This document shows positions 4,603 through 27,040 of a stretch of 64,000 nucleotides of DNA, one piece after another (position 1 is the first letter of the stretch; each line of letters begins with the position of its first letter). The stretch lies in the NCBI GenBank assembly GCA_023382385.1, contig JAHDVH010000002.1, positions 4,957 through 68,956 on the forward strand, written 5' to 3'. The position numbers and the translations under genes were made by a program. This DNA comes from a bacterium. Its GTDB lineage: Bacteria; Electryoneota; RPQS01. The notes beneath the pieces are model-generated. The model searched no databases. It saw only the letters and a program-made list of their open reading frames with translations, and was not told where the DNA came from.

Positions 4603-7134
4603 ATGATGACACGTCTGTTACATTCACTACTATTGACATTATTGTGTTGCTTAATAACACAGTACTCGACCTATGCAAAGCAGCCGCTGAAGAATATGCT
4701 CACCTCGCGGCTCGCAGAAATTGAGATCAAGTCACCCCTGGACGCTCAAGCTATTCAAGATGCGGGCGGAATATTTGATCACTATCGGGGGTCCAAAGCG
4801 CACGTCTATCTGCTTCAAGAGGACTTTGACATTCTCAGGGCACGCGGCTTTAACGTGCAGTGGTTGCAGGAAGTGCGTGAAGAGCACTCACCTCTGGACG
4901 AGTACCACGAGAATGCAGACATCGAGGCACACTTTGTCGCTTGGGCGGCAGCTTATCCATCTCTCTTCACATATCAGAGCATAGGCAACTCCGTTCAGGG
5001 AAGACCGCTGTGGTTCGCGAAAATCTCAGATAACGTGACTGACGACGAGCCTGAGATTGAGGTGAAGTACATTGCTGCGATGCATGGTGATGAGTTGGCA
5101 GGACTCGAAAACTGCCTACGCCTGATCGATACTCTTTTGACCGGTTACGGCGTTGACCCCGTATTGACCGGACTGGTGAACGATTTTGAAGTTTGGATAA
5201 TGCCGTTGATGAATCCCGATGGTCGGGATGCCGGAACTCTGGGTCAACGCTGGAATGCCAATGGCATCGACCTCAACCGAGATTTTCCTGACCGAGTCGA
5301 TGACTCGACAAATACGACAGCGGGAAGACAGATTGAGACAGCTCATGTTATGAACTTCAGTGCGACTCGAACTTTTGTAATCTCGGCAAATTTCCACGGC
5401 GGGGCAGTCGTTGCGAACTATCCTTGGGACAGCAATTACAGTGGTTCGGACGTTTTTTCCCCAACACCCGAGAACACTTTGTTTCACCACATCTCGCTGG
5501 TGTATTCGCAATCGAACAATACAATGTACAATAACAGCGCCTTCCCCCCAGACGGAACAACCAACGGTGCCGATTGGTACCAGGTTCGTGGCGGGATGCA
5601 GGACTGGAATTATGTGTGGATGGGCTGCAAAGAAGTTACGATGGAGATCTCGAACACAAAGTCAGGTCCGGAAAGCGCGTTAGATAGTTTATGGCGAGAG
5701 AATCGCCAGAGTATGATAAACTACTTGCTCACCGCCCGTGAAGGGGTTCGCGGATTTGTCACCGACGCCGAATCTGGAAATCCTGTGCGCGCACGAGTCA
5801 TGCTTGCAAACATCCCCTATGTGACGTACAGCAGTGCGCTTCATGGTGAGTATTTCCGTATGCTGCAGTCCGGCGTCTATTCATTGACGTTTTCAGCACC
5901 CGGTTATGAGAGCCAAACAGTAAACGGGGTGAATGTTGTGAACGGAACACCGACAATTCTGAACATCCAGTTGAATCCGCTTCCGCGTCCTGAGATAGCT
6001 CTCCTGCCCGCCAGTGTGGAGCAGGCTATGCCGAGCTGCAGCGTCACAGATCTTGAACTTGCAGTGCAGAACACGGGCGAGATCACATTGAATTGGGATT
6101 CGCAAGAGCTCGGCTTTAGCGCAACAAACTACGGTGCGGGAGATGGCGGACCGCGTTGGATTGACAGCCGTGCGCCAGGAGGGCCAGCCTACTCCTGGGT
6201 AGATATCAGTGCAATCGGCACCGCTGTTTCGTTTACGCTGGATGATCAGAATCTCGGCCCTTACGCGATCGGTTTCACTTTCCCGTTTTACGGAATGAAC
6301 TACACGCAGTTTCGAGTCTCTGCCAATGGCTGGCTGTCCTTCACTTCCACCGCGACGGGAGCGACTTCCTATAACAACACTGCTCTTCCAAGCAATTCCG
6401 CTCCTGAGAATATCCTTGCAGTTTGGTGGGATGACCTAAGTCCGCAGCGTGCCGGAACGAACGTGAGACGCTGGACCAACAACTTAGATAGCCTTGTCGT
6501 ATCATTTCAGAACATCCAGAGCTATGCGAACAACGGGCTATACAACTTCGAGATAATACTGACTGCGGACGGCGGAATAACCTACCTGTATGGAAACATG
6601 GGTACGAACCGCCTAAACTCGTCAACAATTGGATTGCAGAATAACGATCGTACTCGTGGCGTTACGGTTTTGAATAATTCGGTCTATATCTCGAATGATA
6701 TGGCCATCAAGTTTTGTCCCGGTGTCGCCGTGCAAACCATCCCACCAGCCGGATCAGTGGCCCCGGGGCAACAGCAACTTGTAACACTCCGACTGTCATC
6801 ATGCTGCCTTCCAGACGGGATCAGCCTTTCCAGATTGAGATTTACCTCAGACGATCCCACGCGTCCAACGGTTGACTTGCCCATCACGATTGACTCTGGG
6901 AACTTTCTCGCGCCATCGCCGGTTATCGATTTGACGATTGTCGTGACGGAAACGGGTGCAGAACTGCGCTGGACCACTGCCGAGAATGCGAATTCTTACT
7001 CCATCTGGAGCAGCACCGTGTGGCCTCCGGAGATAGGGAATTCCGTCCTTCTTGGCACAACAACCGGAACTTCATTTGCCGTCTCGACGGATCTTCCCGG
7101 AACGGAGTACTTCATAGTTGTTTCGGAGCGATAG
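4603..7134 (+). CDS. Secreted M14 zinc carboxypeptidase with carboxypeptidase-regulatory-like domain, NIDO-like domain and C-terminal FN3-like module
   Basis: Signal peptide MMTRLLHSLLLTLLCCLITQYSTYA. M14 zinc ligand motifs HGDELAG (HxxE) and ANFHGGAVVANYPWD. CarbopepD_reg-like segment GFVTDAESGNPVRARVMLAN. A segment ...FPFYG..Y..VSANGWLSF...WWDDL... resembles a NIDO domain. C terminus ELRWTTAENANSYSIWSS...EYFIVVSER. Confidence 0.8.
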   Translation: MMTRLLHSLLLTLLCCLITQYSTYAKQPLKNMLTSRLAEIEIKSPLDAQAIQDAGGIFDHYRGSKAHVYLLQEDFDILRARGFNVQWLQEVREEHSPLDEYHENADIEAHFVAWAAAYPSLFTYQSIGNSVQGRPLWFAKISDNVTDDEPEIEVKYIAAMHGDELAGLENCLRLIDTLLTGYGVDPVLTGLVNDFEVWIMPLMNPDGRDAGTLGQRWNANGIDLNRDFPDRVDDSTNTTAGRQIETAHVMNFSATRTFVISANFHGGAVVANYPWDSNYSGSDVFSPTPENTLFHHISLVYSQSNNTMYNNSAFPPDGTTNGADWYQVRGGMQDWNYVWMGCKEVTMEISNTKSGPESALDSLWRENRQSMINYLLTAREGVRGFVTDAESGNPVRARVMLANIPYVTYSSALHGEYFRMLQSGVYSLTFSAPGYESQTVNGVNVVNGTPTILNIQLNPLPRPEIALLPASVEQAMPSCSVTDLELAVQNTGEITLNWDSQELGFSATNYGAGDGGPRWIDSRAPGGPAYSWVDISAIGTAVSFTLDDQNLGPYAIGFTFPFYGMNYTQFRVSANGWLSFTSTATGATSYNNTALPSNSAPENILAVWWDDLSPQRAGTNVRRWTNNLDSLVVSFQNIQSYANNGLYNFEIILTADGGITYLYGNMGTNRLNSSTIGLQNNDRTRGVTVLNNSVYISNDMAIKFCPGVAVQTIPPAGSVAPGQQQLVTLRLSSCCLPDGISLSRLRFTSDDPTRPTVDLPITIDSGNFLAPSPVIDLTIVVTETGAELRWTTAENANSYSIWSSTVWPPEIGNSVLLGTTTGTSFAVSTDLPGTEYFIVVSER

Positions 7135-12928: not shown

Positions 12929-14620
12929 TTGCGCTCACTATCGGATAAGATTGCGCACGCACGGACTTTGGGGGAGAGAGCTCAGGCTCTCTCCCCCATT
13001 CCGTTTCAAAACGTGGGACAACTGCTTGTCTCGCAGGTAGCGGTCCGTCCTGAGCAGCCTTACTTAATCTTCTATTCGGAAACCGGTGAGCGGAACGAAT
13101 GGAGCTATCGGGAATTTGCTGGACGAGTATGGCAAACGGTTCGATTACTGCAAAGTTTTGGAATTACACGCGGCGACCGGATTGCAACGGTTTCGCACAA
13201 TCATGCAGACACGGTCGTCCAGTATTTTGCAGCCTGGGCAATGGGCGTTGTGGCCGTACCGATCAACCTTGGGGAAACGGATGATCGCATCGCGTTCATC
13301 CTTGGCAATTCCGAAACGAAACTTGCCTTTGTGCGCGAATCCTATCTTGAGCGAATTGCTCACCTCAAGGAGAAGTTACCACAATTCCAAACGATTGTGC
13401 AGACTGGCGGCGCCGCTCAACCAGCGTATCCGCATTACTCAATAGAGAGTGTGAAATACTCTGCCGATGCGCTGGAGTTCCCCGATGTTGGCCTCGAAGA
13501 TGAGGTATTAATTGTCTACACATCAGGGACGACAGGAAATCCTAAGGGTGTCGTGTTGGTTCAGCAGAATTTGTTGACGGACGCCCAAGGGATCAGTGAC
13601 TGGCACGGACTGACTGCGCCCCAGAGAATGATGTGCATACTTCCCATTCATCACGTCAACGGCACAGTCGTCACGCTGATTACTCCCATGTATTACGGTG
13701 GCACGACTGTACTTAACCAGAAGTTCTCTACCCATCACTTTTTCGAACGGCTTGCCCGAGAGGACGTTCAAGTCGTCAGTGTTGTCCCGACAATCCTGCA
13801 GTTTCTCTTGCACGAACCGGCACTTGAGGGAAAGCAACCTTTTCTGCCTGATTTCCGTCATATTATATGCGGGGCGGGGCCCCTTACGGTCGAACTTGCA
13901 AGTGCCTTTGAAGACCGCTTCGGCCTCAGGATTGTACATGGTTACGGACTGTCTGAGACGACTTGTTACTCTTGTTTTCTTCCCATTGATTTGTCAGACG
14001 ATGAGCACAAGAAGTGGATGCGAGGTTTTGGCTTTCCGTCAATCGGTGTGCCGATTCCACAGAACGAAATGGAAATCCATGACGAACAAGGTCGCCCGTT
14101 ACCCCAGGACCACAAGGGAGAAATTGTGATTCGCGGGGTAAACGTGATGAAGCACTATTTCGCGAACCCGGAAGCAAATGAGAAGACTTTTGAATTTGGC
14201 TGGTTTCGTTCCGGGGACGAGGGGTTTTATAAGCTCGATGAACGAGGTCGAAAGTTTTTCTTCATCACCGGCCGGCTAAAGGAACTCATCATCCGCGGTG
14301 GTGTGAACATTTCACCTTTTGAGATTGACGAGATCCTCGCACAGATTCCCGGCGTTGAGAAGGCTATGGCCGTTGGCTTCGAGAATGACTGGTATGGCGA
14401 AGAGGTTGGAGCGTACGTATGCCTGCGTGCAGGAGCATCCGTCAGCGAGAGTGACATTCTCAAATTCTGTGCGGAGCGGCTTCAATCCGCAAAATGTCCA
14501 AAAGTAGTTGTTTTTGGCAAGGAATTCCCCGTAACATCAACGGGCAAATACCAGCGGAACAAGTGCAAACATCTATTTAGTGAGTACAAGTCAGTTCAGT
14601 TTCCAAGGAAAGACAAATAG
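12929..14620 (+). CDS. AMP-dependent synthetase/ligase (acyl-CoA synthetase family)
   Basis: AMP-binding signature YTSGTTGNPKGV plus downstream GYGLSETT and GWFRSGD-type motifs. TTG start at 12929 preceded by AGGAGG. Confidence 0.85.
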   Translation: MRSLSDKIAHARTLGERAQALSPIPFQNVGQLLVSQVAVRPEQPYLIFYSETGERNEWSYREFAGRVWQTVRLLQSFGITRGDRIATVSHNHADTVVQYFAAWAMGVVAVPINLGETDDRIAFILGNSETKLAFVRESYLERIAHLKEKLPQFQTIVQTGGAAQPAYPHYSIESVKYSADALEFPDVGLEDEVLIVYTSGTTGNPKGVVLVQQNLLTDAQGISDWHGLTAPQRMMCILPIHHVNGTVVTLITPMYYGGTTVLNQKFSTHHFFERLAREDVQVVSVVPTILQFLLHEPALEGKQPFLPDFRHIICGAGPLTVELASAFEDRFGLRIVHGYGLSETTCYSCFLPIDLSDDEHKKWMRGFGFPSIGVPIPQNEMEIHDEQGRPLPQDHKGEIVIRGVNVMKHYFANPEANEKTFEFGWFRSGDEGFYKLDERGRKFFFITGRLKELIIRGGVNISPFEIDEILAQIPGVEKAMAVGFENDWYGEEVGAYVCLRAGASVSESDILKFCAERLQSAKCPKVVVFGKEFPVTSTGKYQRNKCKHLFSEYKSVQFPRKDK

Positions 14621-14633
14621 ATTGAGGCTCTCA

Positions 14634-16547
14634 ATGAAGAAACTACTTGCTTCCATTCTGCTCGCAAGCTGTGCAATCGTATATGCTGATACACCACCTC
14701 CGACGATGTTGACGCAAGGGAAATACATTCCCGACATTGGAACGTTCCTGCAGATAGGTAATTGGAGTGCTGCGGGAAACAGCTGGGACGGGAAAGACGT
14801 TTATGTGACATCTTCCGCGTCCGGCGAATCCCAGGTGTACCGAATCTTGGAGAGTGGCTGGCCCTACCAGCTGACCACCTTTGAAGATGGGATAGACGGA
14901 TTTACTCTTGCGCATAGCGGGCATGCTGCGATCGTGCAAGCTTCTGTCGGAGGCGACGAGAATTCACAGCTCTATTTAATGGACACAAAGACCGGACAAA
15001 TCCTTAAGCTCACCGATCGCCCAAAAGTGCAGTACGGGTCAGTCGTTTGGGCAAAAGACGACTCGAAGATCTATTACCGCTCCAATGAAGAGAACGGCAC
15101 GGACTTCTTTATTTATGAGATGAGTATTTTATCAGGTGAGAGTAAGAAGATCTTCAGCGGTGTGAAAGGGTCTAACACAATTGCCGAACTCTCGATGGAT
15201 GGCAATCACATGATCATTTCCACTTGGACTTCGAATGTCAACAACGACCTGCATCACCTTGATCTAACCTCCGGCAAGTGGAAGACCATCACAAAGGACA
15301 AAGGTGATGTCAACTACGTCTCAGTGACCCTAATGCCGGACAACCAGACTCTTTGGCTCGTGTGCAACGATAACAAGGACGGTATATTCCGGATTGCGAA
15401 TATGAAATTGAATTCGCCGAAAGTGACATGGGTAAACGATGGATGGCTGGATTCGAGGTGGGAATGCGAAGGACTTGGCTTTTCTCGCGACTTCAAGTAT
15501 ATGGCGGCTTCCACGAACGAAGACGGGTGGGGACGCGCGAAAGTTCGCGAGGTGCAAAGTGGAAGAGCTGTTCCATTGCCGGAGTTGGATGGGCAGATGA
15601 GCATCGCCGGATTCACGCGCGACGGAGAAATGATTCTCACTTTCTCGAGTCCGACCAAAGCACCGGACGTATATCGCTGGAATCCGACCACGCAGAAACT
15701 TACCCAATTGACGCACTCGATTTACGCAGGCATTGATCCGGCAATCTTCCGCGATCCGCAGTTAGTGCGGTTCCCAAGTTTTGATGGACTCGAGATTTCC
15801 GGATATCTCTACTTACCACCCGACTACGTAAATGGCCGGCCGGTGCCCTTCATTGTGGAAGCACATGGTGGCCCGGAATCGCAGTTTCGTCCTTTCTTCA
15901 TTCGCAACATTCAGTATATGATGCTGAATGGATACGGCGTGTTTTGTTTGAATCCCCGCGGCTCCTCGGGATACGGACGAGAGTTCATGGCTTTGGACAA
16001 CTATAAGCTCCGCAAGAACTCTCTTAAGGACTACAAAGCCGCGACCGATTGGTTGATTGCAAACGGGTACACAGCGCCGGGCATGATTGGCATTCGCGGC
16101 GGCAGCTACGGTGGCTACGTTGCGATGGGAATGATCACAGAGTACCCCGATCTCTATAATGCAGCCGTGAACATTGTAGGAATTGTGAACTTCAAGACAT
16201 TCCTTGAAAAGACGGCAGACTATCGAAGGGCATTGCGAGAATCGGAATACGGTCCCCTATCCGATCCCAAGTTCCTCGAAGAAGTATCTCCAATCCACAA
16301 GGCACACTTGATTAAGACGCCACTGCTGGTGATTCACGGCGAAAATGATCCCCGCGTACCAGTCTTTGAAGCGCGACAAATCATTGCAGAGCTGCAAAGT
16401 ATCGGGACCCCGGTTGATTCTCTGATCTTTCCAGATGAAGGCCATGGCGCAAGCAAACGTGAAAACGTGATAGCAGAATACCGCAAGCAGGTTGAATTCT
16501 TTGACACCCACTTGAAAGGACTTCGCAGGCCCGAAGTCAAAGAGTAG
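14634..16547 (+). CDS. S9 family serine peptidase (prolyl oligopeptidase/dipeptidyl aminopeptidase-like) with N-terminal beta-propeller
   Basis: Signal peptide MKKLLASILLASCAIVYA. Catalytic nucleophile motif GGSYGGY (GxSxGG). C-terminal alpha/beta-hydrolase His region HGENDPRV...DEGHG. Confidence 0.8.
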   Translation: MKKLLASILLASCAIVYADTPPPTMLTQGKYIPDIGTFLQIGNWSAAGNSWDGKDVYVTSSASGESQVYRILESGWPYQLTTFEDGIDGFTLAHSGHAAIVQASVGGDENSQLYLMDTKTGQILKLTDRPKVQYGSVVWAKDDSKIYYRSNEENGTDFFIYEMSILSGESKKIFSGVKGSNTIAELSMDGNHMIISTWTSNVNNDLHHLDLTSGKWKTITKDKGDVNYVSVTLMPDNQTLWLVCNDNKDGIFRIANMKLNSPKVTWVNDGWLDSRWECEGLGFSRDFKYMAASTNEDGWGRAKVREVQSGRAVPLPELDGQMSIAGFTRDGEMILTFSSPTKAPDVYRWNPTTQKLTQLTHSIYAGIDPAIFRDPQLVRFPSFDGLEISGYLYLPPDYVNGRPVPFIVEAHGGPESQFRPFFIRNIQYMMLNGYGVFCLNPRGSSGYGREFMALDNYKLRKNSLKDYKAATDWLIANGYTAPGMIGIRGGSYGGYVAMGMITEYPDLYNAAVNIVGIVNFKTFLEKTADYRRALRESEYGPLSDPKFLEEVSPIHKAHLIKTPLLVIHGENDPRVPVFEARQIIAELQSIGTPVDSLIFPDEGHGASKRENVIAEYRKQVEFFDTHLKGLRRPEVKE

Positions 16548-16622: not shown

Positions 16623-17744
16623 TTAATGCGAAATCTGCATGTGCCACCACTTAAGGATATCCGGCAAACGTCTTCGCCACGACAGCTCGTTGTGTTCACC
16701 TTCTGGATCAATTGCGCAACGGACAGTAACACCGTTTTGGACTAGCAGGCGTTCAAATTCGCGCACTGCCTCAATCATTTGGTTGGACAGTTCCTTATTG
16801 CCGCCAAACTCAAGCGCACCATAGTCGATCGAAAACTTCACATCGGAATGGAAATTCTGCGCTAATCTAAGAATCCGTCCTCCCGCCACGCTCATTGTAG
16901 GACTCAAGGATAAAGCGCAACCAAACACGTCCGGTCGAGTCAACCCGGCGTACAGAGAGATCAACCCTCCGAGCGACGAACCGCAAACCGCAGTGAACTC
17001 GCGCTCCGGCTTTGTTCGGTATTGTCGATCGATCATCTGCTTGACAGTTTGCAGAATGAAGCGAATGTAACGCTCACCCTGACCACGTGAGCGTCGAAAG
17101 TCGTCCGGCCAGGGTGAATACTCGTGGAGTCGACCAACGCCGACATTGGGAATTCCCACAACGATGTGTCGCAATCCGTCTCGCTCTGCGAGTTCTGTCG
17201 AAATCTCATCCACTCCCCACTCGCGATCAAACGCAGTTACGTCATCGAACAGATTCTGTCCGTCATGCATATAGAGAACAGGGTAACGCACATCGGTCTC
17301 TCTATCGTACCCTGGGGGGAGCCAAACCAGAACATCACGGATATTGCCAAGTTGCGGCGCAAAGACGTCCTTAATCACACGCAACTCACCCACCACAGTA
17401 TGCTTTGGGCGCCAACTTGCCGCACCTGGGTGCAAGTCACACCATCCTCCGACTTCGATCTTCAAGTCGCCATTTGTAGACTCCAAGGTCACAACACGAT
17501 TGTCAACGGACTTCCCGTCAGCTGAACACTCAACGGTGTCCCAAGTCCCGCGAGTGACTTTGAATTCCACCCTGACAAGTTCAGACGGCAACTCAAATAC
17601 GTAACATCCATCATCCCTCCGTCTCAGCCGCGAGGAAGGGTGTTCGGCGCTCCAGCCATTAAAGTCTCCTGCAAGGTAAATGGATGAATCCGCAGGTGTG
17701 CCCGGCGGAACGCACACGACTAACGTTCGGCTGCCTTGACTCAT
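16623..17744 (-). CDS. Alpha/beta-hydrolase esterase (PF00756 'putative esterase'/Fes-like family) with N-terminal CBM48/AMPK-beta-like carbohydrate-binding domain
   Basis: N terminus IYLAGDFNGWSAEHP...DGCYVFELP...VEFKVTRGTWDTVE resembles a glycogen-binding/CBM48 domain. Esterase serine motif GSSLGG. The start codon overlaps the stop of the upstream ATP-grasp gene (ATGA overlap at 17741-17744). Confidence 0.7.
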   Translation of the reverse strand: MSQGSRTLVVCVPPGTPADSSIYLAGDFNGWSAEHPSSRLRRRDDGCYVFELPSELVRVEFKVTRGTWDTVECSADGKSVDNRVVTLESTNGDLKIEVGGWCDLHPGAASWRPKHTVVGELRVIKDVFAPQLGNIRDVLVWLPPGYDRETDVRYPVLYMHDGQNLFDDVTAFDREWGVDEISTELAERDGLRHIVVGIPNVGVGRLHEYSPWPDDFRRSRGQGERYIRFILQTVKQMIDRQYRTKPEREFTAVCGSSLGGLISLYAGLTRPDVFGCALSLSPTMSVAGGRILRLAQNFHSDVKFSIDYGALEFGGNKELSNQMIEAVREFERLLVQNGVTVRCAIDPEGEHNELSWRRRLPDILKWWHMQISH

Positions 17745-19015
17745 ACTTTTTGAGCGAGACGGTCTTGCTCGGTCTGGGCCCAATAACCAATTAGGCCGCG
17801 ATAATGTGCAATGAACTGCTCCTGCTCATGCTGCGGAAACGAGCGGCGGCAACGTTCCACAAGAATCTCATCCCACTCCGGACTCGTGAAGAATTCAAGA
17901 GCGAGTTCGTCCAGATGCGGCAAATGCGCAGCGCAAAAGACGTCAAATCTTTCGGCCTCAAAATAGCGAAGAGCCAGCTCATGATAGAGTTCAAGCTTTT
18001 CTTCAAACGGTATGTCGCGATCGGCGATAGCAAAATAGTCACGCGATTGCAGGTCTACTCTGGTCTTGCGATTGGTGACAGCACAATAGAGTGACCATCG
18101 CACCAGTGCCTTGATTGCCCATGGGAAATAGTAATGCAGAGACACAAGAGATGTGTCAGGAACAGCGTTGGCAAAGTCAATCGGGTAAATCGCATTGTCA
18201 CGCAGCAGCGACTCACAGGAATTATATTCCCAGCCGAAAAAGGCGTTGATGATCCGAGTAAGTTTTACGAGATAGTCGCCTTGCTTCGCACTCAAGAAAT
18301 CGTGCTCGATTCGATATCGATTGTGCAGCGGTTGATCCGGGTCGTAACGCATCGGTAACACCTGCGGCCCACAACCAAGACAGCGGCAGAAGATTTCGTA
18401 ATCGGTGATTCCCTTTTGAATATGCATGGTCTGCATACCGGACTCATCATATGCTCGGTGCAGTTCTGCTCTGTTCCTGATGTGCGAAACTCCGCGCCAG
18501 CCTCCGCCGTCGTAAGGTTTCATGAAAACCGGATAGCCGCCAATATTCTCGACAACTTCGTCCAGACTGAACAGATTATGGTAGTATTCCATCGTCACAC
18601 GCGCGCGCTCATCAGTTGGATCCCAGTCCTTCTGCGGGATCAGCCACGTCTCAGGGATGTCGAATCCCAGTCTGATCATCACGCAATATGCGGAATTCTT
18701 TTCCATGGACTGAAACGTGAACGGATTATTAATCGTGTGCGCATCGTTGACAAGAATTGACTTCTTGAGCCATTCACGAACCGTCATATGCCAGTACCCG
18801 AGTCGATCAATGATGACATGCCGAGTGACCGGCTGACGGAGGTTGAACGGTTCAATCATGAGTCGCTCGACCTCAAAGTCAAAGCGACGGCCCTGATAGT
18901 CAAGGTGCGAGCCGAGTTTGTTTATCAATGCTTCATAAGATAGCGGCCATGCGTACTCATTACCGAGCAGTAAGCCGATGCGCCGCAGCGTGTGTGGGAG
19001 CTGATCGTGTTGCAT
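17741..19015 (-). CDS. ATP-grasp domain protein (carboxylate-amine ligase) with C-terminal extension of unknown function
   Basis: ATP-grasp core YPVFMKPYDGGGWRGVSHIRNRAELHRAY...MHIQKGI, comparable to RimK/GshB-type motifs. About 424 aa. Translationally coupled to the downstream esterase. Confidence 0.6.
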   Translation of the reverse strand: MQHDQLPHTLRRIGLLLGNEYAWPLSYEALINKLGSHLDYQGRRFDFEVERLMIEPFNLRQPVTRHVIIDRLGYWHMTVREWLKKSILVNDAHTINNPFTFQSMEKNSAYCVMIRLGFDIPETWLIPQKDWDPTDERARVTMEYYHNLFSLDEVVENIGGYPVFMKPYDGGGWRGVSHIRNRAELHRAYDESGMQTMHIQKGITDYEIFCRCLGCGPQVLPMRYDPDQPLHNRYRIEHDFLSAKQGDYLVKLTRIINAFFGWEYNSCESLLRDNAIYPIDFANAVPDTSLVSLHYYFPWAIKALVRWSLYCAVTNRKTRVDLQSRDYFAIADRDIPFEEKLELYHELALRYFEAERFDVFCAAHLPHLDELALEFFTSPEWDEILVERCRRSFPQHEQEQFIAHYRGLIGYWAQTEQDRLAQKV

Positions 19016-19028
19016 AGTGTGGAAGTGC

Positions 19029-19766
19029 TTAATCGAGCTGTGGAATGTAAACAGAAATCATGCGGCGCCACGACGGCCAGTCGTGCGGCGTGTCGTTGCC
19101 CCAAAGATCTAAGTGGTGATTGATACCCTTTTCGGACATGATCGCAGACATACGTTTTGTTTGATCGATACAATTGCCTTCCCAGGCACCCTGCCCCACG
19201 ACGAGCGCAATATTGATGCGTCGTATTGCCTCAAGAGTGTCGCCATCTGTCAGATTTGGTAGATAGTCCATCGGATTCTGGAAGTAGAAGCTGTCGTCGT
19301 AGTAGCCTTCAAGCCGCTCGCGAATATCGTAGTTTCCGGACAGACAGAGCACATGACTGAAGTTCCACGGATACTTGAGAGCGAAGTTCAACGTATGATA
19401 GGCACCAAAGCTGGAACCGGTGGCCGCAATTCGAATGTCCAGTGACTTGCAATGATGGTGAATGAAGGGGAAAACCTCGTGAGTGATGTACTGCTCGTAA
19501 TACTCGTGCGCACGTACGCGTAGGTGTGGCGGGAGGCCCTTGTTAAACCAGCTCTCGGAGTCTATACCATCAACACAGAATACTTTTACGCCGCCGCCTT
19601 CGATACTGCCGCGGACAGTTTCAATCATGTGATTCGCTTCGTAGTCAAAGAAGCGGCCCTGCGCCGAAGGAAAAACAAGCAGGGGCCGCCCATAATGACC
19701 GAAGACGAGGAGTTCCATGTCGCGGCCAAGAGCCGGACTATACCATTTGTGATGTTCGCGTTGCAT
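19029..19766 (-). CDS. Alpha/beta-hydrolase esterase (PF00756-like)
   Basis: Nucleophile motif GSSFGAY. Overall similarity to esterase D/Fes-type proteins. Co-oriented with the ATP-grasp, MFS and GCS2 genes. Confidence 0.65.
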   Translation of the reverse strand: MQREHHKWYSPALGRDMELLVFGHYGRPLLVFPSAQGRFFDYEANHMIETVRGSIEGGGVKVFCVDGIDSESWFNKGLPPHLRVRAHEYYEQYITHEVFPFIHHHCKSLDIRIAATGSSFGAYHTLNFALKYPWNFSHVLCLSGNYDIRERLEGYYDDSFYFQNPMDYLPNLTDGDTLEAIRRINIALVVGQGAWEGNCIDQTKRMSAIMSEKGINHHLDLWGNDTPHDWPSWRRMISVYIPQLD

Positions 19767-19802
19767 TTGTAGTTAGGATGTGTTGTATGTCGAATGTGGG
19801 TA

Positions 19803-20993
19803 CTATGTCTGATTAAGACGTTCCGAGCGATTCATCGCAAGAGCGAAGAAACCGATCGCGGACAGCAGGCCGAAGAATGAACCGACGAAGAAGGGTGCGG
19901 AGGTCGAGACGTTGTCCCATAACCACCCTGCCATCATGCTTGCAAGAAACACAATAACCCCGGTTATCATGCCAAATACTCCGAGAGCGGTAGCACGCAC
20001 ATGCTTGTCCACAACGTTACTGATGAGTGCTCTAAACACCCCTTCGGTAAGCGCGGCAAAGAGCCCATACAGTATGAACAGCGGAAACACGACCCACGGT
20101 TCCCGCAGGAGCGCAAAGCCAAGGTAAACGAATGAATAGATCAAGAGTCCTGCTGCAAGCAGAAATTCCTTAGAGACACGGTCAGCGCGCCGCCCGATGG
20201 GGTAAGCAAAGAGTGAGTAGCAGGCATTGAAGCCCAGATAAGCCAGTAATACCTGTGACGTTGGAAGTCCTGTGTGCTTGCTCTTCAATATGAGGAATGC
20301 GTCGCTGCTGAAACCGAGGTAGCCGATTGCCGCAATAATTACAATTCCCCAGTAACGTTTGCCAAACTTCACGCACGCAGCCGGTTCTCCGGATCTTGCA
20401 GGTACTTCACGCCGCGTCTCGCGTATCTGAAGAATCAGGAGTACACCCAAAAGTGCGGGGATGAATGCAATCCAATAGAGTGATCGTAATCCACTCTGAT
20501 CGGCAGTACCCAGAGATTGCAGCAATACAAGTGAAATCGCGACCCCGCTCAATGCACCCGCCGTATCTAACGCACGATGCAAACCAAAGGCCCTGCCTCG
20601 AATTTCGGGCGGCGTCAAGTCGGCGATAAGTGCATCCCGCGCAGAACCGCGCAAACCCTTGCCAAAGCGATCGAGAACTCGTGCAAACAACACGAGCGGC
20701 CAGCCGATTGCGAGGGCAATGAGTGGCTTGGATACCGCAGACAGACCGTAGCCGACGAGGATAAAACGCTTACGCTTTTGAATTCGATCTGAATACCAAC
20801 CGCTGACTCCCTTAAGAATACTCGCGACTCCCTCGGCTGCTCCTTCAATCAACCCAACAACGCTTGCGGAGGCGCCGAGTACCATGGTCAAGAACAACGG
20901 CGTAACAGCATACAGCATCTCGCTGGAAACGTCCGTGAAGAAACTCACCCAGCCGAGACGTTTGACGTCCGGCGATAGTCGCTGTTCTCTCAT
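19803..20993 (-). CDS. MFS transporter
   Basis: About 12 predicted hydrophobic helices. MFS-type loop motifs (GWYSDRIQKRKRFILVGYGL; LDRFGKGLRGSARDALIADL). Confidence 0.75.
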   Translation of the reverse strand: MREQRLSPDVKRLGWVSFFTDVSSEMLYAVTPLFLTMVLGASASVVGLIEGAAEGVASILKGVSGWYSDRIQKRKRFILVGYGLSAVSKPLIALAIGWPLVLFARVLDRFGKGLRGSARDALIADLTPPEIRGRAFGLHRALDTAGALSGVAISLVLLQSLGTADQSGLRSLYWIAFIPALLGVLLILQIRETRREVPARSGEPAACVKFGKRYWGIVIIAAIGYLGFSSDAFLILKSKHTGLPTSQVLLAYLGFNACYSLFAYPIGRRADRVSKEFLLAAGLLIYSFVYLGFALLREPWVVFPLFILYGLFAALTEGVFRALISNVVDKHVRATALGVFGMITGVIVFLASMMAGWLWDNVSTSAPFFVGSFFGLLSAIGFFALAMNRSERLNQT

Positions 20994-21010
20994 TTCAGAT
21001 TAAAGACGTT

Positions 21011-22132
21011 CTACGCATTCTTCACACTCTCCTGAAACTCGTTGACAACGGACTCAGTGACCGCTTCAAAACTCTGGGTCTTCCGATAGATTGCTCTCTG
21101 GCGGTCGTAACTGCCGCCGCGATCTACAATCTTCATAATGTGCTGTAACTCGCGCAGACAGTTTTGTTGAACAGCAAACGGAGTGAGTGTGCGGACAAGC
21201 TTTTCAAGGTCGTCGCGCATATTTCGCGTCGTTCCATCGTCGGAGTGAACAATGTCGGCGTCGAGTCCCCAGCGAGTCGCACGCCATTTGTTTTCGCGGA
21301 TGAACCAGTATTTATGAATGGGCAGTTCTTCGCCATTGTCATAGAGTTCTTCAAGGTAACAAACCAGACACTGTGCCAAGGCGACCAGCGCGAGAACATC
21401 ATCGAGATCCGGCGTTGCATCACAGATTCGAATCTCTATGGTCCCGAACTTGGGATGAGGCCGCACATCCCACCAGATTTCCTGAATGGACTGAATCGCG
21501 CCGGCATGAATCAGTGTTTTCATAAAGCGCTGGAACTCCGCCCAGTTGAGCATTCGCTGGGGAAGTCCGGCGGTAGGCATGGCTTCAAAGACTTTGATAC
21601 GGCAGGAGGCAAGTCCTGTCTCTTCTCCCATGAAATAGGGCGACGCGGCAGAAACTGCGAGCAGGTGGGGCAAAAAGGTTGTCATGGCGTTGAAAATCGC
21701 GATTGCCTTCTCCGCGGTCTTTACACCGACGTGGACGTGAAGACCCATGATCATCGCACGTCGAGCAGGCCATTGCATTTTGTTAACGAGCGTCATGTAT
21801 CGCTGATTTTCTGTAATGGTCATGTCGTGCCAAAGCGCTGTGGGATGCGTTGCCACGAATGTCGTCGTCAACCCTAGCCTCTTCGCTGCCGCCTCAACAA
21901 TGAGAAACTTTTCAACTAGCTCGCGCTTGACATCAGCCACGGTTCGGCAAGGCGTCGTAATCACCTCGATTATGCACTGAAGCAGTTCGGGCTTTGCCCA
22001 GCCAACGTCGCCGAGTTCGGCCAAAAGTTCGGGAACCCGATTGACGACTTGTTTCGTCTTGGGGTCAAGCAGCAGGAGCTCACATTCAACGCCTAACGTA
22101 GGCTCAGGCGAACCATTGAAAATCAATGCCAT
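21011..22132 (-). CDS. Glutamate-cysteine ligase family 2 (YbdK-type carboxylate-amine ligase)
   Basis: N-terminal GCS2 signature TLGVECELLLLD, ~370 aa length and conserved central blocks (HVHVGV, GTIEIR) typical of the YbdK/GCS2 family. Confidence 0.7.
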   Translation of the reverse strand: MALIFNGSPEPTLGVECELLLLDPKTKQVVNRVPELLAELGDVGWAKPELLQCIIEVITTPCRTVADVKRELVEKFLIVEAAAKRLGLTTTFVATHPTALWHDMTITENQRYMTLVNKMQWPARRAMIMGLHVHVGVKTAEKAIAIFNAMTTFLPHLLAVSAASPYFMGEETGLASCRIKVFEAMPTAGLPQRMLNWAEFQRFMKTLIHAGAIQSIQEIWWDVRPHPKFGTIEIRICDATPDLDDVLALVALAQCLVCYLEELYDNGEELPIHKYWFIRENKWRATRWGLDADIVHSDDGTTRNMRDDLEKLVRTLTPFAVQQNCLRELQHIMKIVDRGGSYDRQRAIYRKTQSFEAVTESVVNEFQESVKNA

Positions 22133-22315
22133 AGGGAAATAGTGGGTGGGAATTTAGCAGGATTAGGATACAGGAAAGATACGGAAACACTCCGCTGAAT
22201 TCAACGGTTTTCCATGAGAATTATCATTTGCGCGGATGCCAGAATGCTTCTCTTTCCATTGGTACAGGAAATTGCTATATTTTAGGTTATCCACAATCCG
22301 GTCTCGCGCTCATCA

Positions 22316-25813: not shown

Positions 25814-26503
25814 CTAAGAAAGGGCAAAGTCCACGGCTGCGGTTGCGTGGATCAGCGTTGTGTCGTATCCGATCACAGGGCACTCGGCCGGTTTGATGAG
25901 CAGAGGAATTTCCGTGCAACCAAGAATGATTCCCTGTGCTCCTTGTTCCTTTAGATCTTCCATGATTCTCACATAGGTTTGCTTGGTCTCTTCTTTGAAT
26001 AAGCCGAGTCCAAGTTCCTCAAAAATGGTGGAATGAATATAGTCGCGGGTTTGTTTGTCCGGAACCAGAGTCTGAATGCCGAATCTGGCGAGAATGTCTC
26101 GGTAGAATGGTTGTTCCAACGTAAACGATGTGCCGAGGAGTCCGACGCAGGAGTGCCGGTGTTTAAGGATCTCCTTCGCTGTGGCTTCGGCAATATGAAT
26201 CAATGGGATGCCAATAGCAGACCGCACTCCATCCGCAACGATATGCGGTGTATTCGCACACAAGAGCAGACCTTCCGCACCTGCCTGCTCAAGTTGGCGC
26301 GCTATCGGGACCAGAAACTTCTCTGACGACTCCCACCCGCCGGTTTGATTGTCTGAATAAAACTCGTGGAAATTCATCGAATGGAGGATCAACCTTGCAG
26401 AGTGTAATCCCCCGAGTCGTTCGTTGGTAATCTTGTTGATTAGTTTATAGTAGTCAAGCGTCGAGTGCCAGCTCGTCCCACCAATCAGACCAAGTGTTTT
26501 CAT
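25814..26503 (-). CDS. Aspartate/glutamate racemase family protein
   Basis: N terminus MKTLGLIGGTSWHSTLDYYKLIN. Conserved Cys-containing blocks LLCANTPH and ILGCTEIPLL. The longer ORF in the track (to 27022) is an upstream read-through lacking homology; true start placed at the ATG at 26503. Confidence 0.75.
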   Translation of the reverse strand: MKTLGLIGGTSWHSTLDYYKLINKITNERLGGLHSARLILHSMNFHEFYSDNQTGGWESSEKFLVPIARQLEQAGAEGLLLCANTPHIVADGVRSAIGIPLIHIAEATAKEILKHRHSCVGLLGTSFTLEQPFYRDILARFGIQTLVPDKQTRDYIHSTIFEELGLGLFKEETKQTYVRIMEDLKEQGAQGIILGCTEIPLLIKPAECPVIGYDTTLIHATAAVDFALS

Positions 26504-26578
26504 CTGCAAACTTTCGTATTTTGAGATAGGTGAATCTAACGTCATGGCCAGACAAAGGCAAGTCAGAGGAGTAGATTT

Positions 26579-26995
26579 GTGAGGAAATTCATATTTGGCG
26601 GAGCCGATATCAAGTCGGGAGCCGCGAATCTCGGATTGTTGATTCTCCGGGTGTTCACTGGTCTCACCATGGCCATTGCACATGGCTGGGGGAAAACCCC
26701 ACCTTCCGAAAAATTCATCGAAGGCGTCGGCAAGATGGGTTTTCCGGTGCCCGAAGTCTTCGCATGGGCCGCAAGCCTCTCGGAATTCGGCGGTGGGCTG
26801 TTGCTCGCTCTTGGCTTGGCTACTCGCCCAGCGGCATTCTTCATTGCGTTTACGGTGGGCGTTGCTGGATTTGTCCGGCACGCCGATGATCCATTCGCGA
26901 CCGCCGAGAAAGCCTTTTTGTTCCTCGCCATTTCGGTAGCTTTCGTTTTCATCGGCGGCGGACGGTTCGCTTTGGACCGGAGTTTCTCCAAGTAA
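26579..26995 (+). CDS. DoxX family membrane protein
   Basis: Small 4-TM protein with a DoxX-like N terminus LGLLILRVFTGLTMAIAHGWGK. Confidence 0.65.
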   Translation: MRKFIFGGADIKSGAANLGLLILRVFTGLTMAIAHGWGKTPPSEKFIEGVGKMGFPVPEVFAWAASLSEFGGGLLLALGLATRPAAFFIAFTVGVAGFVRHADDPFATAEKAFLFLAISVAFVFIGGGRFALDRSFSK

Positions 26996-27040
26996 TTCAG
27001 CGAGGTAGAGTCTGATTTCCAAAACGATGTGTTAGAGGAT

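Follow-up and report, generated by a model that had tools for sequence, protein, structure and literature searches.

A conserved gene module links an orphan ATP-grasp ligase with two esterases across bacterial phyla

Five neighbouring genes in a 64,000-nucleotide stretch of contig JAHDVH010000002.1 (assembly GCA_023382385.1, forward-strand positions 4,957 to 68,956; hereafter the window), from a bacterium of the Electryoneota lineage RPQS01, raise the question of whether two ligases, two hydrolases and a transporter encoded side by side belong to one pathway, and what such a pathway would do. They encode a GCS2 carboxylate-amine ligase, a major facilitator superfamily (MFS) transporter, a small PF00756 hydrolase that we call EstS, an ATP-grasp ligase, and a two-domain esterase that we call EstL. 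The initial annotation had read them as a candidate pathway for amide-linked small molecules or peptides. Here we report that the five genes form one operon, and that EstS, the ATP-grasp ligase and EstL constitute a core that is conserved in at least eight bacterial phyla.

The five long open reading frames (ORFs) all lie on the minus strand between 16623 and 22132, and the opposite strand holds no comparable ORFs. The co-directional arrangement with short gaps described in the initial annotation was confirmed, the gaps being 17 nt between GCS2 and MFS, 36 nt between MFS and EstS and 13 nt between EstS and ATP-grasp. Direct reading of the sequence likewise bore out the proposed overlap between the ATP-grasp stop and the EstL start, which appears as gtATGAgt at 17741-17744. 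A conserved promoter-like motif was found upstream of GCS2 only. The gaps of 13-36 nt, the ATGA overlap and the single promoter-like motif together establish the five genes as one operon.

We compared 80 species-level genome loci around homologues of the ATP-grasp protein, together with several metagenomic loci, in which relatives of the operon genes were located by seed-based tblastn. Linkage was counted in the 63 loci having at least 3 kb of flank on each side. EstS was the most constant partner, lying within 3 kb of the ATP-grasp gene in 51 of the 63 loci (81%); EstL was found within the same distance in 49 (78%), and both esterases stood beside the ligase in 47. A GCS2-superfamily gene was present within 5 kb in 15 loci (24%), seven of the YbdK type and eight of a non-orthologous 493-aa form that matches PF04107 weakly (30.9 bits). 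The occurrence of two non-orthologous forms at one site has the look of displacement, an argument for functional coupling. The gene order also varies, usually being EstL-EstS-ATP-grasp in Actinomycetota and EstS-ATP-grasp-EstL in Calditrichota, KSB1 and locus L090; the latter two read GCS2-EstS-ATP-grasp-EstL without an MFS gene, and in L090 EstS directly follows GCS2. The conserved core consists of EstS, ATP-grasp and EstL, and the GCS2-type ligase is a recurrent but facultative partner that occurs in two non-orthologous forms.

Neighbourhood conservation was the test that the initial annotation had named for its gene set, and the outcome was favourable for four of the five genes in several phyla. 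The functional linkage that it had suggested for two ligases, two hydrolases and a transporter is retained, but the composition has to be narrowed to the EstS/ATP-grasp/EstL core, the GCS2 gene being present in the minority of loci and the MFS gene specific to Calditrichota. ATP-grasp loci that have no esterases show heterogeneous partners (DUF2252, acyl-CoA dehydrogenase, RibD_C, CBS/BON and aldo-keto reductase) with no shared theme. No conserved ORF of 30-120 aa that could encode a precursor or carrier was found within 3.5 kb of the module in 86 loci.

What kind of ligase stands at the centre of this core? No Pfam or NCBIfam model reaches its threshold on the ATP-grasp protein, including those of the named families RimK, Ddl (TIGR01205), GshB and cyanophycin synthetase. 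The RimK (TIGR00768) and GshB models gave no match, Dala_Dala_lig_C (PF07478) scored 20.4 bits, below its cut-off of 24, and the NCBIfam models of the Ddl/Van type (D-Ala-D-Ser/D-Lac ligase) scored 15-28 bits against cut-offs of 245-775. An AlphaFold2 (AF2) model built from 52 homologues, with a predicted local distance difference test score (pLDDT) of 88.5 and a predicted template modelling score (pTM) of 0.89, displays a three-domain ATP-grasp over residues ~1-290, followed by six helices (290-424). The best ATP-grasp matches in a Foldseek comparison with the PDB were Ddl, VanA, ArgX/LysX and RimK (E ~1e-10, probability 1.00, target template modelling (TM) score 0.5-0.72), with target TM scores of ~0.65-0.72 for RimK and ArgX/LysX. 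At the sequence level, a PDB search with the family profile aligned the protein only over the ATP-binding stretch, residues ~135-245, the best E-value being 3e-5 (Ddl, VanA). By eye, an ATP-binding loop of the KPxxGxxGxGV type, FMKPYDGGGWRGV, can be recognised, as in RimK, LysX-ArgX and VanA ligases, and residues K166, G170, G171, E268, D280 and N283 are invariant in the 52 sequences. The predicted structure is that of an ATP-grasp enzyme, and the two types of ATP-dependent ligase proposed for the cluster are upheld by this fold and by the GCS2 scores given below.

The family is also large. More than 7500 homologue clusters (90% identity clustering) were found at E <= 1e-3, and 195 representatives of a 50%-identity library reach E 1e-30. 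Most of these homologues, although drawn from Actinomycetota, Chloroflexota, Planctomycetota and Deinococcota, align with 94-100% of the window protein at ~50-55% identity. Carriers were found among Actinomycetota, Chloroflexota, Calditrichota, KSB1, Planctomycetota, Deinococcota, Acidobacteria, Dormibacterota and Sumerlaeia, with Kribbella and Nonomuraea as cultured examples, and a plasmid collection contained no homologue. The 52 aligned sequences have 81 invariant columns, several of them within the C-terminal domain. Because of these columns and the conservation of the family over its full length, the C-terminal extension, which had been described as an uncharacterised addition to this enzyme, is an integral part of the protein: the extension is present as described, is helical in the model, and is family-wide and not a local oddity. 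Judged from these comparisons, the protein belongs to a large but tight orphan family. In the Sumerlaeia locus L051 (8309-11254) the ATP-grasp forms the end of a 981-aa ORF, whose N-terminal 564 aa have no Pfam match and may be either a real extension or a start-codon artefact in this genome of 69% GC. Apparent fusions of esterase and ATP-grasp among the 50%-identity representatives (P0405, P0419 and P0432) were rejected as frameshift artefacts of adjacent genes, because they contain the long Arg/Ala/Pro-rich out-of-frame stretches that are typical of frameshifted high-GC assemblies.

Both esterases are recognised by PF00756, whose cut-off is 22 bits. EstS scores 48.4 bits, corresponds to the JGI 'esterase/lipase superfamily enzyme', and has G117-x-S119-x-G121 and H228-D229-W-P motifs that are invariant in 27 diverse homologues. 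EstL scores 98 bits (E 1e-27), with G255-S256-S257-x-G259 and H351 invariant in 46 homologues. Both hydrolases carry intact catalytic motifs. EstL starts at the ATG at 17744, giving 373 aa, and not at the TTG at 17783 of the mechanical ORF list, because this start creates the ATGA overlap and is also the one called in relatives. Its AF2 model (pLDDT 94) combines an N-terminal beta-sandwich with an alpha/beta-hydrolase. In Foldseek the top matches were the CBM48-CE1 enzymes 7b5v, 6rzo and 6mou (over ~385 columns, E 1e-18), followed by Fes, PfeE, BesA and fungal siderophore esterases, and the predicted model has the CBM48-CE1 arrangement in which the sandwich is N-terminal to the esterase. Feruloyl and siderophore esterases are the nearest neighbours of both EstS and EstL; the Fes model NF007758 (cut-off 222) was not reached by either (EstL 37.7 bits, EstS 17.4 bits).

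The N-terminal domain of EstL had been annotated as CBM48, a label that holds approximately. Full-length homologues (37-42% identity) do match CBM_20 (36 bits, cut-off 23.3), CBM_48 (25.8, cut-off 22.4) and AMPK1_CBM (26.8, cut-off 26.8), and the fold agrees, but residues 1-120 of the window protein itself have zero Pfam matches even at E 10. W31, K62 and W68 are conserved in the 46 homologues and presumably belong to GxFNxW and FKx..GxW, the motifs of which the CBM20/48 sugar site is made. The earlier impression that the esterases have no obvious secretion signal was correct: EstS, EstL and the ATP-grasp protein have no signal-peptide-like N-terminus, in contrast to the neighbouring S9 peptidase. 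Among the EstL homologues found elsewhere, many are longer proteins or bear Por secretion tails. Since the operon EstL has no signal peptide while many homologues carry these tails, we regard it as a cytoplasmic member of an often-secreted family.

The first gene of the operon is assigned to the YbdK-type GCS2 family by PF04107 (E 3e-59, 201 bits against a cut-off of 21), the NCBIfam 'glutamate--cysteine ligase' model NF010043 (444.7 against 409) and TIGR02050 (300.6 against 176.4), and its product is a predicted ligase. Gamma-Glu-Cys is the reported product of every characterised enzyme among GCS2/YbdK, haloarchaeal GshA and EgtA, and the bond made by characterised family members is gamma-glutamyl throughout. 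The position of this gene is shared by the Calditrichota relatives, KSB1 (L091) and L090. The transporter matches MFS_1 (PF07690; E 3e-38, 132 bits against 33.4) and has eight transmembrane-like segments by hydropathy; among named NCBIfam models its best matches, none of which reaches its cut-off, are of efflux type (MdtH, MxcK and EntS). Its gene is limited to close relatives of the Calditrichota type (6 of 84 tblastn loci, plus L092-L095), and the nearest outgroups, L090 (ATP-grasp 66% identical) and L091, have no MFS gene between GCS2 and EstS.

Variant clusters add further enzymes to this picture. In an Acidobacteria-type variant (L085 6627-13354; L086 8001-13159; L089 8001-12597), EstS is followed by a short ATP-grasp paralogue of 333-351 aa and a YbdK-type GCS2 (33% identity). 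The L085 paralogue (349 aa, 29% identity, E 9e-34) has no helical domain. L085 and L086 next encode an M29-like peptidase and a ~400-aa protein, which shares a short ATP-grasp-like motif with a 470-aa protein of L089 that itself matches CP_ATPgrasp_2 weakly (circularly permuted ATP-grasp, similar to glutathionylspermidine (Gsp) synthetase). In some Actinomycetota, Dormibacterota and one Acidobacteria metagenome-assembled genome (MAG), three ATP-grasps of the L-amino-acid-ligase type lie between the ATP-grasp/GCS2 genes and the esterases, accompanied by a protein with a weak Peptidase_S51 match. Locus L002 (8001-17254) contains the orphan ATP-grasp, a long GCS2-like gene, EstS, three ATP-grasps with LAL_C2 matches, a weak Peptidase_S51 match and a Fes-like EstL, and extended clusters of this type were also seen in L009, L052, L055, L058 and L061. 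In the Chloroflexota/Anaerolineae loci L015, L019 and L025, two tandem orphan ATP-grasp paralogues (48-51% identical to the window protein) follow EstL-EstS, the second copy lying ~1.3-1.5 kb upstream of the matched one, which suggests two successive ligation steps by one family. Every recurrent accessory gene is, by its predicted family, an amide-bond ligase or a peptidase, and this favours a peptide- or amide-type product.

We hypothesised that the operon of this Calditrichota-like bacterium encodes a cytoplasmic module that builds and hydrolyses a small, non-ribosomal metabolite of peptide-like or depsipeptide-like character, with amide or ester links. We favour this reading, with a confidence that falls a little short of an even call. 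ATP-grasp and GCS2 enzymes convert a carboxylate to an acyl-phosphate that is then attacked by an amine, and some ATP-grasps couple to hydroxyls or thiols. It is this activation of carboxylates by the ligases, combined with the ester and thioester hydrolysis performed by PF00756 enzymes, that leads us to a build-and-hydrolyse scheme, and the fold of the ATP-grasp, nearest to amino-acid and peptide ligases, supports a peptide-like product. From the gene identities, the operon, the ATP-grasp fold, the hydrolase motifs and the linkage across phyla described above, we infer the following stepwise chemistry. The YbdK-type GCS2 would form the first ATP-dependent carboxylate-amine bond, and the orphan ATP-grasp would then activate a carboxylate as acyl-phosphate and add the next residue through an amide bond, or an ester bond as in VanA-type enzymes, so that assembly in the window lineage may proceed in two steps, GCS2 then ATP-grasp. 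The cytoplasmic EstS and EstL would cleave the product or an intermediate, whether for turnover, recycling or deprotection, and the lineage-specific MFS protein may carry the product or a precursor across the membrane.

Several observations weigh against this proposal. No member of the ATP-grasp family has a known product or activity, and its conservation (~50% identity between phyla) is unusual for secondary metabolism and would fit a conserved macromolecular or central-metabolite substrate equally well. The substrates that characterised PF00756 enzymes hydrolyse or transfer are esters and thioesters; peptide bonds are not among them. The window EstL is closer (~40% identity) to a broad CBM20-esterase family, many of whose members have secretion tails, than to the actinobacterial EstL (24-32%). 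Outside Calditrichota, no conserved transporter or regulator accompanies the module. GCS2 is missing from the neighbourhood in ~76% of loci, so the two-ligase pathway is not the universal form; in a reciprocal search, moreover, all 34 of 34 sampled metagenomic loci of YbdK homologues (36-42% identity) were without other module genes, and only four near GCS2 relatives (85-100% identity) were linked to the module. It is possible, if unlikely, that EstS, ATP-grasp and EstL constitute instead a widespread and undescribed cycle of reversible conjugation, in which an amino acid or short peptide is placed on a conserved cellular acceptor. Glycogen, a cytoplasmic alpha-glucan to which the CBM20/48 module would give access, is one candidate acceptor; a central metabolite is another, and a new thiol-, storage- or stress-related compound would then result. 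An ester or amide bond would hold the group, which the two dedicated esterases would take off again, and GCS2 and the other ligases may extend the adduct in some lineages.

More specific explanations can be weighed against the same data. That the genes are a chance juxtaposition of unrelated housekeeping functions is scarcely credible, and for four of the five effectively refuted. The flanking genes are indeed syntenic only among close relatives and the MFS gene is lineage-specific, but species-level loci from several phyla place EstS, ATP-grasp and EstL side by side in 75-81% of cases, in more than one gene order; the share of loci with a GCS2-type gene compares with a chance estimate of well under 1%, made roughly from a few such genes per multi-megabase genome; and translational coupling is present. 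A siderophore system, with ligases that build a chelator, an EntS/MxcK-like exporter and Fes-like esterases that release iron in the cytoplasm, would account for the Fes architecture of EstL, its structural matches to Fes, PfeE, BesA and fungal siderophore esterases, and the weak NCBIfam matches of the transporter to MxcK/EntS and of both esterases to enterochelin esterase. All of those matches are nevertheless far under their cut-offs (37.7 bits against 222, for example), genes for TonB receptors, ABC importers, catechols or hydroxamates are not among the conserved neighbours, no Fur-box-like element is conserved upstream, the MFS gene is restricted to one lineage, and siderophore genes are not typically conserved to this degree; we consider this very improbable. 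A thiol assembled by the logic of glutathione is also decidedly improbable. Here GCS2 would make gamma-Glu-Cys, the ATP-grasp would add a third residue as an analogue of GshB, the PF00756 enzymes would act as S-acyl-thiol hydrolases (esterase D/FrmB-like) and the MFS protein would export the thiol. The GCS2 protein passes the 'glutamate--cysteine ligase' model, GshB, also an ATP-grasp, is a structural neighbour, and PF00756 includes S-formylglutathione hydrolases. Yet the ATP-grasp gives no GshB-specific signal (best PDB match to a glutathione synthase, E 0.095), EstS and EstL have no specific similarity to esterase D (best such match 6vh9, E 0.5), most loci have the esterases and no GCS2, and Actinomycetota, to which many carriers belong, use mycothiol.

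The extreme full-length conservation of the ATP-grasp, helical domain included, fits a conserved macromolecular partner, and RimK and ArgX/LysX are among its best structural matches. Both points would fit an enzyme whose acceptor is a carboxylate on a conserved protein with its gene elsewhere, tailed with amino acids in the manner of RimK on S6 or LysX-ArgX on LysW; the helical C-terminal domain would then recognise the target, and the hydrolases would trim or erase the modification. We nonetheless find this reading as a whole quite unlikely, as the 86 loci contain no conserved small ORF or carrier within 3.5 kb, peptidase activity is not known among PF00756 enzymes, the ligases that serve as accessory partners (GCS2 and L-amino-acid ligases) act on small molecules, and the Acidobacteria-type paralogue retains the same partners without the helical domain. 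The CBM-like features of EstL would point in another direction, to a cycle of alpha-glucan acylation in which glycogen, or a compound linked to malto-oligosaccharide, receives an amino or organic acid in ester linkage from the ATP-grasp, and the CBM20/48-targeted esterase and its companion remove it. Consistent with this, EstL homologues have CBM_20, CBM_48 or AMPK1_CBM domains and conserve W31, K62 and W68, EstL is cytoplasmic, like glycogen, both hydrolases come from an esterase family, and ATP-grasps can make esters, the best sequence-level matches here being VanA-type ligases. However, the N-terminal domain of the window EstL fails every Pfam CBM model, that of the actinobacterial EstL matches only the Fes type, and faintly, and in Fes and CE1 enzymes the same beta-sandwich shapes the active site and does not bind starch. 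No glycogen gene is a conserved neighbour, the trehalose and phosphoglucomutase genes near L085 and L086 being isolated cases, and the accessory partners are peptide enzymes. This cycle, too, strikes us as quite improbable. As an observation on locus L086, the genes that flank it are OtsA/OtsB, TreS-Mak and phosphoglucomutase.

Why does this module matter? Its ATP-grasp family is large and unusually conserved, has no family model, solved structure or assigned function, and almost always has the same pair of cytoplasmic esterases as genomic partners; genes linked so strongly usually belong to one discrete biochemical pathway. The initial annotation did not recognise the gene set as a described one, and we came to the same result: module-directed literature searches, whose coverage excludes Iyer et al. 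2009, the survey likeliest to mention it, returned no description, and the PADLOC defence models matched none of the five proteins. The module is apparently undescribed and built from known enzyme superfamilies. We set it apart as an uncharacterised, widely conserved amidoligase-hydrolase module because the models of named ATP-grasp families fail and the defining features of glutathione and cyanophycin systems are missing. Identification of the product would annotate thousands of genes now called 'hypothetical protein', 'esterase family protein' or 'carboxylate-amine ligase', and could show that common bacteria of soil and sediment make a peptide-like metabolite or modification that is new. 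As far as we can see, the module resolves no recognised long-standing problem.

Table 1. Positions of the operon genes and of the putative promoter in the window
Feature	Position	Strand	Evidence
YbdK-type GCS2 carboxylate-amine ligase, 373 aa (operon gene 1)	21011..22132	-	PF04107, NF010043
MFS transporter, 396 aa (lineage-specific insertion)	19803..20993	-	PF07690
EstS, small PF00756 serine hydrolase, 245 aa	19029..19766	-	PF00756
Orphan ATP-grasp ligase, 424 aa (predicted)	17741..19015	-	AF2 model/Foldseek; sequence models sub-threshold
EstL, two-domain esterase, 373 aa	16623..17744	-	PF00756, AF2 model, ATGA overlap
Promoter-like element TTGAAT-17 nt-TATCTT, ~45 nt upstream of the GCS2 start codon (putative)	22176..22204	-	Conservation

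The putative promoter was recognised by its conservation, GTTGAA and CGTATCT being invariant in the window and five Calditrichota relatives (six sequences) while the surrounding sequence varies; the element scores below the threshold of a consensus scan. A second conserved block, AAATATA, lies toward the divergent SRPBCC-YfcH gene. A TGATAAT half-site upstream of GCS2 was considered as a Fur box and rejected, as relatives read TGAGAAA and the site is not conserved. Rfam searches gave no riboswitch or other element at E <= 1 in the operon region of the window, and none in seven actinobacterial and Chloroflexota loci. The base composition of the operon is uniform with the rest of the window. The closest loci come from Calditrichota MAGs, with 82-88% protein identity and identical gene order and flanks, and one further contig matches the window at 91% nucleotide identity. 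Two MAG contigs labelled 'uncultured Alphaproteobacteria' (L006 and L008) have the full operon and its flanks, with an ATP-grasp 82-85% identical to that of the window, and their label is probably wrong.

The flanks encode an AMP-dependent ligase, a secreted S9 peptidase, an SRPBCC-YfcH protein, an S8 subtilase and an Asp/Glu racemase; these genes are syntenic among close relatives only and were not counted as part of the module. The racemase gene (25814-27022, minus strand), ~4 kb from the operon and syntenic in the Calditrichota relatives, is a candidate source of D-amino acids for a Ddl-like ligase, two divergently oriented genes separating it from the operon. Its 402-aa ORF is a mechanical over-extension, the domain beginning at residue 174 and the L003 protein having 229 aa. 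The S9 peptidase ORF (14580-16547, plus strand) and the end of the AMP-ligase gene overlap. The peptidase gene, kept in close relatives only, is convergent with the operon; an internal MKKLLASILLASC motif appears to be its true start, with a lipoprotein-type signal peptide.

How does the module compare with known systems? One parallel in outline is glutathione synthesis by two ligases (GshA/GCS2 and GshB), since a GCS2-superfamily and an ATP-grasp ligase share one operon here and stepwise ATP-dependent assembly of a short peptide would be the simplest shared reading. Unlike in those pathways, the ATP-grasp does not match the GshB family model, GCS2 is facultative, and two esterases, which glutathione operons do not have, are the constant partners. 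In structure as in sequence, the ATP-grasp comes nearest to the RimK, LysX-ArgX and VanA ligases, but here the scores are 15-28 bits against family cut-offs of 143-700, and the enzyme has an extra 130-residue helical C-terminal domain and no S6, LysW or cell-wall gene context. EstL resembles the CBM48-CE1 feruloyl esterases of Bacteroidota (7b5v, 6rzo and 6mou) and Fes (3c87 and 3mga) in its two-domain architecture, and differs in being only 15-20% identical, in having no signal peptide and in being coupled to an ATP-grasp, outside any polysaccharide-utilisation or siderophore gene context; the neighbours are ligases, in contrast to the glycoside hydrolases or SusC/D of CE1 feruloyl and acetyl-xylan esterases. 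Graspetide and other ATP-grasp systems of ribosomally synthesised and post-translationally modified peptides differ in that no precursor peptide gene is adjacent here, either within 3.5 kb in the 86 loci or in the 13-36 nt gaps of the window. Cyanophycin synthetase with cyanophycinase, and Gsp synthetase/amidase, are similar in pairing an ATP-dependent ligase with hydrolases that could undo the ligation, and some variant clusters have the weak Peptidase_S51 protein or the Gsp-synthetase-like circularly permuted ATP-grasp. The CphA architecture (ATP-grasp and Mur-ligase domain) and an S51 gene are, however, absent from the window, the hydrolases belong to PF00756, and the ATP-grasp matches CphA over residues 140-193 only (E 8e-4). 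Similar in general theme is the 2009 amidoligase survey of Iyer, Abhiman, Burroughs and Aravind, which reportedly described gene clusters where hydrolases accompany ATP-grasp and COG2170/GCS2 ligases, with novel peptide metabolites as the predicted products.

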